Made by a program: the position numbers and the translations under genes
Sequence record: ON528736
Strand: one strand, 5' to 3'
DNA length: 64,000 nt
From: Shigella phage ESh26
Shown here: piece after piece, positions 49,246 through 52,282 of the stretch
How the letters are laid out: every line of letters begins with the position of its first letter
Position numbering within the stretch: the first letter of the stretch is position 1
The notes under the pieces: generated by a model
Told to the model about the DNA's origin: nothing
The model's input: only the letters and a program-made list of their open reading frames with translations
Database searches by the model: none

Positions 49246-49809
49246 TTATTTATCTAGTTTAGTTATTATAGCTTCTGCAGCAGCTTTTAGCTTAGATGCG
49301 GTGTTAATACGATTTTTAATTTCAGTATACGCATCGCCAAGAACATCAAGGCTATCAGAATAAACACTTACACTATTGCGTTCGCTATTTGAAATAGAAC
49401 CTTTAGTTTTGCGGTCAAAATCGGTGTACACGTCTTGAAGATCGCGGGCTGCCTTCTTTGCATCATCCAATGCATCAAGAGCTTTATTCAAAGCATTAAC
49501 GTATTTTTTAGTGTCGAACATATTCTTAGAAATTTTAACAGGTGCGCGTTCAGGAGTAGCTAACACAGATTTAGGAACCTGAGCGCCAGATGCCAATTTC
49601 TTAGAAATTTTGAAAAATGCTTTATTGAATTTATTTTCTTGACTCATTGTAAAAGAACTATTATCGATGTTGTACATTTCAATAGCTTTAGCTTTCCACT
49701 TAAGAAAATCGCCGCGGTCTTTTGGGTCCAATTGGAAGAATACTTTAGTAAGATCTGCTTCAGATGGTAATTTTGCTGCTTCGGTTAAAAATTCGGCATA
49801 GGTTTTCAT
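49246..49809 (-). CDS. internal protein (head-packaged, capsid-targeting leader)
   Basis: 187 aa, N-term MKTYAEFLTEAAKL; terminator after stop. Confidence 0.6.
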   Translation of the reverse strand: MKTYAEFLTEAAKLPSEADLTKVFFQLDPKDRGDFLKWKAKAIEMYNIDNSSFTMSQENKFNKAFFKISKKLASGAQVPKSVLATPERAPVKISKNMFDTKKYVNALNKALDALDDAKKAARDLQDVYTDFDRKTKGSISNSERNSVSVYSDSLDVLGDAYTEIKNRINTASKLKAAAEAIITKLDK

Positions 49810-49934: not shown

Positions 49935-50408
49935 TTATTTGATTTGTTTAGCAGACCAAATGCGGTCTTTAATAATTTTTTGGATGTCTTCAACATACTC
50001 AAGAGAGTGAACATGCGGATTATCTTTGAAACTATAAGCACGGGCTAACTTTTGGCCTTCGGTTTTGATTACTAAAAGCTCTTTAAGGATAGCTTCATAT
50101 TTAGCGATAATTCCTTTAACGATATTTTTTTCTTGTGCAGCTTTAGGATCTGCTTTAGGAGCAGGTTTACCCGAAGCCTTTGCAAAAGCAGCGCCAGTAG
50201 CAACTAAACTTTTCCAGGCCATACTAACTGCATTTCCCGTAAATCCTTCTGCTTTCATGTCGCGAGCAAATTGGAATCGTGATTCGTCAGAAGCATCTTT
50301 ATAGGAATATTTACCCGCTGCAATGGCTGCTTTTGCGACAGCTTGAATTTCGGTGCTAGATGCTTCATTTAACACCGCTTCATTTAAAAATTGAGCATAT
50401 GATTTCAT
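49935..50408 (-). CDS. internal protein (capsid-targeting leader)
   Basis: 157 aa, N-term MKSYAQFLNEAVL; late promoter TATAAATA upstream; terminator after stop. Confidence 0.6.
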   Translation of the reverse strand: MKSYAQFLNEAVLNEASSTEIQAVAKAAIAAGKYSYKDASDESRFQFARDMKAEGFTGNAVSMAWKSLVATGAAFAKASGKPAPKADPKAAQEKNIVKGIIAKYEAILKELLVIKTEGQKLARAYSFKDNPHVHSLEYVEDIQKIIKDRIWSAKQIK

Positions 50409-50448
50409 CTTATTTCCTGTTTTAATTCGTGGATTTAATATACTACTA

Positions 50449-50456
50449 TATTTATA
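50449..50456 (-). promoter_or_regulatory. late promoter TATAAATA
   Basis: minus-strand TATAAATA upstream of internal protein gene start 50408. Confidence 0.6.
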
Positions 50457-50463
50457 CTAAAAA

Positions 50464-50485
50464 GCCCCAACCTTTCGGTCGGGGC
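50464..50485 (-). terminator. rho-independent terminator ending the tRNA/stable-RNA transcription unit
   Basis: 9 bp stem, GAAA loop, then UUUUU. Confidence 0.75.
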
Positions 50486-50797
50486 TAAGCCTTGCGGCAA
50501 CCTTGTCGGGGTTCCACCTGCTAAGGCAAGTGTTTGTACGAAACGCCGGGATTCGAACCCGGTTATTAAGCAGTTGACGCTACTCAATATTTTTAAAAGG
50601 CCATATCTCGACCATATCCGAACGTTCCGTCAAAAACGCTACTCGGCTTACGGCAAAGATATTTCCTCGAATCGATAATTCTGTGCGCCGTTTCTGCTGT
50701 GATGTAAGGGGACATTAACAGATCGTAAAGATTTGTTAATGCCAGTCCTTACCCAGGGAACATCAGTCCGACGACTTACCGGTAGCGACCCGGTTTC
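50486..50797 (-). ncRNA. candidate stable RNA region with tRNA T-arm motif
   Basis: 312 nt without ORF, GC-richer than surroundings, CCGGGTTCGAATCCCGG on minus strand, ends at strong terminator 50464-50485. Confidence 0.3.
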
Positions 50798-51148
50798 TTA
50801 ATATTCTTTTAAAGCATCAATCTGTTCACGGCGTTTACGCCATAAATCAATTGCTTCATACGCAGATTCAGCATTTCGAATTAGTCGGCATTTGTGTAAA
50901 GACTTGTGATTTTGATATTGCGTAGATAACGAAATTTTATCTAAAAGGTCTTTACGTTCAAAGTATTCGTAACCATCTAAGCCAAATGAACGATTTTTGA
51001 GAAATTGCCAATGACCATATTCGTTTTCGACATAAACATAATCCGCATGTTGATAAAGCAAATTAATTACACGTTCAGAAATAACAGTGTCATTGTGATT
51101 AAAATAAAATGTTAAATCATGAACTACTAAATAAACATTACCTTTCAT
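50798..51148 (-). CDS. hypothetical protein immediately downstream of tRNA-Arg
   Basis: 116 aa, GAGGAA SD 8 nt before ATG. Confidence 0.45.
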   Translation of the reverse strand: MKGNVYLVVHDLTFYFNHNDTVISERVINLLYQHADYVYVENEYGHWQFLKNRSFGLDGYEYFERKDLLDKISLSTQYQNHKSLHKCRLIRNAESAYEAIDLWRKRREQIDALKEY

Positions 51149-51154
51149 ATTTTC

Positions 51155-51230
51155 CTCACTTAATTGGTCGAGGCAGTAGGGATCGAACCTACGACCTAGG
51201 ACTTAGAAGGTCCTTGCTCTTCCTTCTGAG
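51155..51230 (-). tRNA. tRNA-Arg (anticodon UCU)
   Basis: hand-folded cloverleaf, 76 nt, T-loop TTCGATC, CCA encoded. Confidence 0.85.
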
Positions 51231-51234
51231 CTAT

Positions 51235-51310
51235 GCCCCGTAATTGGGGTGACCGATGGGGGTCGAACCCATGACTACGAGAATCACAATCTCGAGTTCT
51301 ACCAACTGAA
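51235..51310 (-). tRNA. tRNA-His (anticodon GUG), no encoded G-1
   Basis: hand-folded, 7 bp acceptor GTGGCCG/CGGTCAC, C73, CCA encoded. Confidence 0.75.
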
Positions 51311-51423
51311 CTACGGCCACATTAATACCTACTCCAACAATCAAGATGTCTTCACACGAAATTAAGAGAAGAGTGATCAGTTCAACCCTATAATCGCGTC
51401 AAGTAGATATTAATGTGACAGTT
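51311..51423 (-). ncRNA. 113 nt spacer inside tRNA cluster, possible small stable RNA
   Basis: no ORF; palindrome TGTGACAGTTGTCACA; lies between tRNA-Asn and tRNA-His. Confidence 0.2.
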
Positions 51424-51498
51424 GTCACAAATTTGGCGGACGTGATAGGATTCGAACCTATAACCAATCGCTTAACAGGCGATCGCTCTGCCATTGAG
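51424..51498 (-). tRNA. tRNA-Asn (anticodon GUU)
   Basis: hand-folded, 75 nt, anticodon loop CTGTTAA, CCA encoded. Confidence 0.8.
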
Positions 51499-51502
51499 CT
51501 AC

Positions 51503-51589
51503 ACATCCAAATTGGTGGGGAGTGATGGAGTCGAACCACCCGAGTCGCAATGACAATGGATTTACAGTCCACACCGCTACCTCTACGGG
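51503..51589 (-). tRNA. tRNA-Tyr (anticodon GUA), long variable arm
   Basis: hand-folded, 87 nt, loop CTGTAAA, class II variable arm. Confidence 0.8.
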
Positions 51590-51602
51590 ATAACTCCCCT
51601 TA

Positions 51603-51677
51603 ATTCTTAATTTGGTGGCCCTGGGTGGAATTGAACCACCATCTGGCGATTATGAGTCGCTTGCTTGAACCTTCCAG
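51603..51677 (-). tRNA. tRNA with CAU anticodon (Ile-lysidine type by position, or Met)
   Basis: hand-folded, 75 nt; follows Thr as tRNA-Ile does in T4. Confidence 0.75.
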
Positions 51678-51678
51678 C

Positions 51679-51754
51679 TACAGGGCCTTGGTGCTGATTG
51701 ACGGAATCGAACCGCCGACCTTCTCATTACAAGTGAGTTGCTCTACCTACTGAG
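51679..51754 (-). tRNA. tRNA-Thr (anticodon UGU)
   Basis: hand-folded, 76 nt, loop CTTGTAA. Confidence 0.85.
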
Positions 51755-51759
51755 CTAAA

Positions 51760-51849
51760 TCAGCAAAACTGGCGGAGGCGATAGGATTTGAACCTATGAG
51801 TCGCCGGAGCGACTGCCGGTTTTCAAGACCGGTGCATTAAACCACTCTG
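51760..51849 (-). tRNA. tRNA-Ser (anticodon UGA), long variable arm
   Basis: hand-folded, 90 nt. Confidence 0.85.
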
Positions 51850-51851
51850 CC

Positions 51852-51925
51852 ACGCCTCCAGTCTCCATACAAGGATTTGAACCTTGGACCTCCTGATCCC
51901 AAATCAGGCGCTCTACCAAACTGAG
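51852..51925 (-). tRNA. tRNA-Pro (anticodon UGG), CCA not encoded
   Basis: hand-folded, 74 nt, loop TTTGGGA. Confidence 0.8.
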
Positions 51926-51935
51926 CTACACGGAG

Positions 51936-52101
<166 letters not shown>

Positions 52102-52102
52102 C

Positions 52103-52175
52103 CATTCTCGCGCTGGGAATAAAGGACTCGAACCTTTGCATCCTGGAATCAAAATCCAGTGCCTTACCAACTTGG
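52103..52175 (-). tRNA. tRNA-Gln (anticodon UUG), CCA not encoded
   Basis: hand-folded, 73 nt, 5' UGGGAAU. Confidence 0.85.
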
Positions 52176-52282
52176 CTAATTCCCAATTATTAACAAAGGC
52201 TCTTAAGCAAGAACCCTTGATGATAGAGGGTATTAATCAGTGCGATATGAGTTAATAATAACAAATAATTCTTAAAGCATAT

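Follow-up and report, generated by a model that had tools for sequence, protein, structure and literature searches.

The RNAs of bacteriophage T4 called species 1 and species 2 have been known as small stable RNAs since the 1970s, and work of that decade is said to have found species 1 RNA dependent on RNase P. Their genes lie downstream of the T4 tRNA cluster in the order rnaD (species 2), an AAUUA spacer, rnaC (species 1), a trailer and a terminator. Both RNAs belong to a tRNA precursor transcript of ~1.75 kb, and transcription of the T4 tRNA cluster stops after the gene for species I RNA (PMC2330249). They are late RNAs that have been detected by Northern blot (PMC9697503). As of 2025, the function of the species 1 and 2 RNAs was still called unknown (PMC12685909). 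The only functional hint found in the literature for either RNA comes from experimental evolution of the T4-like phage BW-1, in which the same SNP in rnaD appeared in every line that adapted to ECOR34, a semi-permissive host (PMC12685909).

The DNA analyzed here is a 64,000-nt stretch of Shigella phage ESh26 (ON528736), hereafter the window. Its 312-nt interval at 50486-50797 holds the phage's own rnaD and rnaC, T4-type stable RNAs and thus a feature that is already known. A preliminary description of the sequence had suggested that stable RNAs like T4 species 1 and 2 might be encoded here, and this is borne out, as the interval contains orthologs of both genes as annotated in phages RB3 and T4. 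On the minus strand it can be aligned to these ncRNA genes base for base, and alignment to the T4 rnaC/rnaD region, which that description had proposed as a check, gave full-length orthology with a conserved, covarying structure. At the same place, RB3 (NC_025419) is annotated with a 121-nt rnaD (‘species II RNA’) and a 139-nt rnaC, and T4 (MT984581) with rnaD as ‘small, stable RNA; species 2’ and rnaC as ‘species 1’, again 139 nt. A 391-nt query spanning the interval found matches in 806 phage records, nearly all from T4-like phages of Escherichia, Shigella and Yersinia, including a 100% match to Enterobacteria phage IME339. Because the query matches IME339 at 100% and its matches are almost all in T4-like phages, the source genome can be assigned to Tequatrovirus.

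Coordinates for both genes were transferred from RB3 by alignment, so that their ends are homology-inferred. On the minus strand, rnaD (~121 nt) occupies 50681-50801, the AAUUA spacer 50676-50680, which is the gap between the annotated RNAs in RB3 and T4, and rnaC (139 nt) 50537-50675. rnaC is 100% identical to that of RB3 and 98.7% identical to that of T4 over 151 nt (98.7-100% across T4, RB3 and RB27). rnaD is more variable, with 88% identity to the T4 gene (NC_000866), and its conserved 5′ and 3′ cores are identical to those of T4; matches covering at least 80% of the rnaD query were found in 721 records. The present rnaD also differs at its 3′ tail, which reads ACAG here and ACCA in T4 and RB3.

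The genomic setting is likewise that of T4. Eleven tRNA genes were detected by ARAGORN on the minus strand at 51165-52185, and the interval lies just downstream of this cluster, with rnaC after rnaD and before the operon terminator at the end of the tRNA operon. The preliminary description had called the region GC-richer and bounded by a strong terminator, and both statements hold. GC content is 0.47 at 50500-50799 against 0.33-0.40 on either side and resembles that of the tRNA cluster (0.46-0.50). Downstream of rnaC comes a conserved 3′ trailer (50487-50536, minus strand; fold z = -3.7) with small hairpins (CACUUGCC..GCAGGUG at 50515-50532), followed by the intrinsic terminator of the tRNA/stable-RNA operon, a 10-bp stem with a U run at 50459-50486 on the same strand (50463-50486 in the terminator scan). 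A late-promoter-like sequence, TATAAATA, is found at 50449-50456 (minus strand), directly past this terminator. Further along are two tandem paralogous minus-strand ORFs of 187 and 157 aa (49246-49809 and 49935-50408), both members of PHROG 2280 and both beginning MK(T/S)YA(E/Q)FL. Each is followed by a near-identical terminator (..CCGAAAGGTTGGGGCTTTTT), and a terminator of the same type ends the tRNA/stable-RNA operon. Within the tRNA cluster, a 113-nt gap between tRNA-Asn and tRNA-His (51321-51433, minus strand) contains the inverted repeat TGTGACAACTGTCACA and a TTGACG box; in RB3, tRNA-Asn is followed almost at once by tRNA-Arg and there is no tRNA-His.

The locus departs from T4 and RB3 on the 5′ side of rnaD. 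In those phages rnaD starts 1-2 nt after tRNA-Arg, whereas here a 116-aa ORF (50798-51148, minus strand; PHROG 3355), a gene that the preliminary description had already placed there, sits between tRNA-Arg and rnaD behind a good Shine-Dalgarno sequence. The ORFs neighboring the interval, this one included, gave no significant Pfam match. A gene at this position is present in phage G29 and many other Tequatroviruses, which are arranged likewise; the departure concerns the surroundings of rnaD and not rnaD itself. Because the ORF separates tRNA-Arg from rnaD, the 5′ end of rnaD cannot arise here as it does in T4. The 5′ end transferred from RB3 (50801) overlaps the stop codon of the ORF and the base preceding it.

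The interval had also been described as free of ORFs. It does contain three short ones (50 aa with a TTG start, 40 aa and 34 aa), but none reaches 60 aa. A protein-coding function for such ORFs of 34-50 aa is extremely unlikely. The ORFs at 50593-50715 (40 aa, ATG start) and 50435-50587 (50 aa, TTG start) exist, and many phage records list hypothetical proteins under the match; yet these two minus-strand ORFs straddle the RNA boundaries, namely rnaD/rnaC and rnaC/terminator, substitutions are compensatory in helices and not codon-patterned, rnaC is found in other genera without these flanks, and the curated T4 and RB3 records annotate RNAs at the site. Rfam 15 contains no family for either RNA at gathering thresholds, in the window or at the homologous loci.

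Comparison of 28 distinct sequences points to rnaD as an independent structured module, composed of the predicted helices P1, P2 and P2b, an invariant CCCUG and a swappable hairpin, P3. P1 is the hairpin ACCGG-GUCGCUA-CCGGU (50778-50794, minus strand), whose closing pair is A-U or G-C among T4-like phages; a wholly different hairpin occupies its site in Vequintavirinae and in Karamvirus and Jiaodavirus relatives. The 5′ strand of P2, GUCGUCG (50769-50775, minus strand), belongs to an invariant core and has CGGCGC at 50685-50690 as its partner, with one G-C to A-U double change in Jiaodavirus-type sequences. The junction that follows (50754-50767, minus strand) consists of ACUGAUGUU and the invariant CCCUG. 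Its bases 6-9 (UGUU) pair with AGCA at 50695-50698, within 50692-50703, to form P2b, for which covariation is clear at three of the four pairs (UA19/AU6/UU3, GC20/AU8, UG19/AU6/UA1/UU2 and UA28). P3 (50704-50753, minus strand) is variable, occurring as three unrelated types in T4-like phages and in a short form in phage W70 and Karamvirus. A hammerhead-like organization of rnaD (CUGAUG...GAAAC) was considered and rejected, as the helix register does not fit, Rfam gives no ribozyme match, and Karamvirus-type sequences have Watson-Crick pairs in place of the tandem G.A pairs.

An rnaD homolog also occurs outside the T4-like phages. In Escherichia phage W70, a member of the Vequintavirinae, it lies directly 3′ of a tRNA (locus L035, 1493-1592), and its 25-nt and 21-nt cores are identical to those of T4, although it has a different P1 and a short P3. 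This homolog implies that the putative module has spread horizontally. More divergent relatives follow tRNA-Asn in Karamvirus, Jiaodavirus, Moonvirus and an Erwinia phage. In 185,579 bacterial and archaeal genomes, the rnaD core pattern found no cellular homolog: its 35 matches are all attributable to chance, none having the AA(G/A) prefix or four of four P2b pairs, and 33 of them lie at a GC content of 0.56-0.76. In Karamvirus, Jiaodavirus and Erwinia phage COW86c (L007, 571-702; L036-L039), a conserved non-coding stretch of ~130 nt runs from the rnaD-like element to tRNA-Asp. It begins with the hairpin CCGAAAGUUUACUUUCGG, has no Rfam match and may be a further ncRNA of the tRNA cluster.

The second RNA, rnaC, is predicted to combine a tRNA-like acceptor stem and T arm with two arms that are not those of a tRNA. 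The comparison drew on 18 distinct sequences from at least seven Tevenvirinae genera, taken from Tequatrovirus, Kanagawavirus, Winklervirus, Moonvirus, Karamvirus, Tegunavirus, Edwardsiella phage PEi20 and IMG/VR contigs. All elements lie on the minus strand. The 5′ strand of the acceptor-like stem, CGAUUCG (rnaC 2-8; 50668-50674), pairs and covaries with the 3′ strand CGUUUCG (rnaC 131-137; 50539-50545). Next to the 5′ strand, at the position of a D arm, is arm I (rnaC 9-78; 50598-50667), a 70-nt irregular hairpin with double changes at 14 of 25 pairs, whose apical loop UUGACG (rnaC 43-48) is found at 50628-50633. An A-rich 8-nt linker, UUUAAAAA (rnaC 79-86; 50590-50597), is unpaired in all folds and keeps its run of A. 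It leads to arm II (rnaC 87-112; 50564-50589), a 10-bp stem with double changes at nine of the ten pairs and the 6-nt loop CGUCAA (50574-50579). After a single nucleotide follows the T arm, CCGGG-UUCGAAU-CCCGG (rnaC 114-130; 50546-50562), which is 100% paired with double changes at two pairs, and variants at T-loop position 57 remain purines (G or A). Past the acceptor stem, the tail is U followed by ACAA (50534-50538), conforming to U + (A/U)CA + A in all 18 sequences.

Single-sequence folding of rnaC gave a minimum free energy (MFE) structure of -50.2 kcal/mol (z = -4.55), and RNAalifold independently recovered the same helices from the alignment. In the alignment of the 18 sequences, pairing extends to 93.2% of cells and double changes are seen at 28 pairs; none of 500 shuffles attained either value, and slid controls were paired at only 37-44%. 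In the acceptor stem, compensatory changes give pair types GC12/AU6 and GC16/AU1/GU1, the A4-U135 pair becomes G-C in 12 sequences, and in Tegunavirus U-A and C-G stand in place of the two U.U mismatches. Three lineages (Kosakonia phage 305, PEi20 and KaAlpha) have exchanged all of arm I for unrelated sequence but keep its length of 70-72 nt and its apical loop. In Entb_45 (L003, 1504-1648) and Kc304 (L021, 332-476), the T loop UUCGAAU is changed to UGCAUGC or UGCAUUC, and the unpaired GG at rnaC 74-75 to CG (G74 to C). The co-occurrence of these two changes could be read as a contact resembling the D-loop/T-loop elbow; as a coincidence in one lineage, it is not relied on.

The T-arm motif that first drew attention to the region is real: CCGGGTTCGAATCCCGG followed by CGTTTCG (50539-50562, minus strand) comprises the T arm of rnaC and the adjoining acceptor strand and has a single exact match in the window (0 expected from 100 shuffles). 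The preliminary description had coupled it to CGGAACG as a possible pairing partner, with a degenerate tRNA as one outcome. CGGAACG (50623-50629) is indeed present, 67 nt upstream of where the motif begins, and is complementary to CGUUUCG, but the pairing is not evolutionarily conserved; in the 18 distinct sequences the conserved partner is the 5′ end of rnaC, CGAUUCG, and CGGAACG itself pairs locally with CGUUUU as the apical stem of arm I. A pseudo tRNA of ~94 nt closed by CGGAACG/CGUUUCG, with CCUUUUAAA as a Lys(UUU) anticodon loop, is thus very improbable. The 7-8 bp of complementarity do exist in Tequatrovirus sequences, the record of phage G29 annotates a 94-nt tRNA-Lys(ttt) over the same part of rnaC, and the Rfam tRNA-Sec model aligns weakly in this register. 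Nevertheless, that score of 16.6 bits, the best of the Rfam tRNA clan, falls far under the gathering value of 47, and ARAGORN called no canonical tRNA or tmRNA in the interval. The helix (47-53 with 131-137) has no double changes, is unpaired at one pair in 11 of the 18 sequences, and is wholly lost in Tegunavirus and the three lineages with a replaced arm I. Where the 3′ strand changes from U to C, the accompanying A to G change is found in the 5′-terminal strand instead. Forcing the alternative fold costs 13.3 kcal/mol relative to the MFE, and the T4 records give rnaC as 139 nt, not ~94 nt. The G29 annotation reflects this same misfold. Permuted or intron-containing tRNAs, also raised at the outset, fare no better, since the two acceptor strands follow each other in the usual order at a distance of 129 nt and neither register yields a cloverleaf.

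The instinct behind these proposals was nonetheless sound, since rnaC is related to tRNA through its acceptor stem and canonical T arm. Like a canonical tRNA (RF00005), it has a 7-bp acceptor-type stem contiguous with a 5-bp T stem and the 7-nt loop UUCGAAU, and it occurs in tRNA arrays. Unlike a tRNA, it is 139 nt long, lacks both a 5-bp/7-nt anticodon arm and a normal D arm, carries two U.U mismatches in the acceptor stem and ends in U-ACA-A, not N-CCA; the RF00005 model does not match rnaC even below threshold. A search of the window with Rfam covariance models, another of the checks proposed, returned only the eleven tRNAs above gathering and none in the interval. The weakest of the eleven is tRNA-Tyr (51513-51599, minus strand), with 30.2 bits against a gathering score of 29, the other ten scoring 60-74 bits. 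At E <= 10, nothing within 50380-50900 exceeded 17.7 bits, and the hits to tRNA-Sec (16.6 bits), isrK, anti-hemB and adapt33 are at chance level.

Another comparison is with tmRNA, in which the ends of a longer RNA likewise come together as an acceptor stem and T arm around non-tRNA structure. However, rnaC has neither a tag reading frame nor a series of pseudoknots, and neither ARAGORN nor Rfam reports a tmRNA match. YrlA (a Y RNA-like RNA of bacteria and phages), the tRNA-like structures (TLS) of plant viruses and mascRNA are non-decoding, tRNA-shaped RNAs that are handled by tRNA enzymes. No Rfam match to these was obtained at E <= 10, and rnaC is built differently, its tRNA-like part closing the entire molecule.

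The two apical loops of rnaC, UUGACG (43-48) and CGUCAA (97-102), are exact reverse complements, and all six pairs are maintained in all 18 sequences. In Tegunavirus the loops read UUGAUG and CAUCAA, a compensatory C-G to U-A change that represents a single evolutionary event. Predicted loop-pair energies are -5.5 and -4.1 kcal/mol for the matched pairs and -1.0 kcal/mol for the mixed pair UUGACG/CAUCAA. The pair closing the loop of arm I varies (UA8/UG7/AU2/GC1), and the three lineages with a replaced arm I still end in a 4-bp stem capped by UUGACG. These observations suggest that the apical loops form a kissing loop, evidence that is good but not conclusive, consisting as it does of one event plus invariance. 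Against it, an alternative local pair, U43.G48, is also invariant. Stricter rnaC patterns in IMG/VR and metagenomes returned almost only near-identical T4-type copies and so gave no further test of the loop pair, and the six matches to a relaxed loop/T-arm pattern in IMG/VR were all false positives in high-GC coding sequence. In the rnaC of the Klebsiella phage KaAlpha (L007, 1426-1569), the complementarity between the apex of arm I and arm II is 15 nt, not 6 (AAAGUAGUUGACGCU / AGCGUCAACUACUUU), and because of this extension the MFE structure pairs both arms as one long helix.

Complementary, fully paired loops of 6-7 nt are familiar from the kissing complexes of HIV TAR/TAR* and ColE1 RNA I/II. 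rnaC likewise has two complementary 6-nt loops, but both are in one RNA, and the proposed contact comes from comparative data only. UUGACG and CGUCAA could pair equally well in trans, giving kissing-loop homodimers or larger assemblies of rnaC. Such an intermolecular arrangement is rather unlikely: the retention of 70-72 nt in arm I despite replacement of its sequence fits a ruler within one molecule, although a dimer held at two points would impose a similar constraint.

The distribution of rnaC bears on its mode of action. Covariance model R1 recovered a single copy in the window, at full length with 161 bits, and no member beyond Tevenvirinae-type loci. Identity to rnaC is at least 97% in ~690 of 765 matching records. 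In the non-Tequatrovirus genera, with the exception of Kosakonia phage 305, the gene is located in tRNA arrays; in Karamvirus, Moonvirus, Kanagawavirus and Tegunavirus it is 5-9 nt from the flanking tRNAs. In Dhakavirus JS10 and IME281, rnaD is joined straight to the trailer without rnaC, which makes the two RNAs separable modules. It has to be asked whether rnaC might act purely in cis, as a tRNA-shaped ‘cap’ that provides an entry site for RNase P and shields the operon at its 3′ end. In favor of this, rnaC is in Tequatrovirus the final tRNA-shaped element ahead of the trailer and terminator, and its acceptor stem and T arm are its best conserved tRNA features. Yet rnaC is found mid-array in Karamvirus, Moonvirus, Tegunavirus and Winklervirus Kc304, Dhakavirus keeps the order rnaD-trailer-terminator without it, and the invariant loops, the fixed length of arm I and the extreme conservation exceed the needs of a cleavage site. 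Furthermore, rnaC accumulates in T4 as a distinct stable RNA of ~140 nt (PMC9697503). Given the mid-array positions, the conservation and the accumulation, a purely cis-acting role is unlikely.

The preferred reading, which we consider highly probable, is that the distal end of the tRNA operon encodes two processed stable RNAs, rnaD and the tRNA mimic rnaC, followed by a structured trailer and the terminator. In rnaC, the 7-bp acceptor-like stem would stack on the canonical T arm. An acceptor stem with a T arm is the part of a tRNA that is read by RNase P, by the enzymes that trim 3′ ends and by those that modify the T loop. Because rnaC presents this combination, the tRNA-maturation machinery of the host would most likely cut it from the polycistronic precursor and stabilize it. 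With a tail of UACAA in place of CCA, it may or may not undergo the CCA-dependent steps. The 70-nt arm at the D-arm position and the 10-bp hairpin at the position of the anticodon arm would most likely pair through their loops and so close the molecule. With no anticodon arm, and with its two remaining loops probably paired to each other, rnaC cannot decode.

What such a molecule might do can only be proposed tentatively. The leading suggestion is that rnaC, as a non-decoding look-alike of tRNA, could possibly occupy or titrate a tRNA-binding factor; candidates are a tRNA-targeting nuclease of the host or a processing or modification enzyme. A more elaborate proposal is doubtful: rnaC would be a self-locked tRNA mimic, with the UUGACG loop of its 70-nt arm bound to the CGUCAA loop of the arm equivalent to the anticodon arm, that would draw off a tRNA-directed host factor, e.g., an anticodon nuclease, as a decoy or sponge in trans, or that would form dimers assembled through its loops, and rnaD, shared by T4-like and rV5-like phages, would be a further ncRNA module with a mobility of its own. 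If this were true, the convergent SNP in rnaD (PMC12685909) would mark a host-specific activity.

As a genome feature, the rnaC/rnaD pair is routine and expected in any T4-like genome. In practice, it is mainly their annotation that matters: these RNAs are present in ~800 phage records, yet most of the entries inspected among the matching records carry nothing or a ‘hypothetical protein’ at the site, with one spurious tRNA-Lys. The residual interest is biological: after ~50 years the species 1 and 2 RNAs still await a role, and the comparative fold gives targets that can be mutated: the acceptor stem and T arm, the two arms with their invariant complementary loops, and the module-like spread of these RNAs among phage genera.
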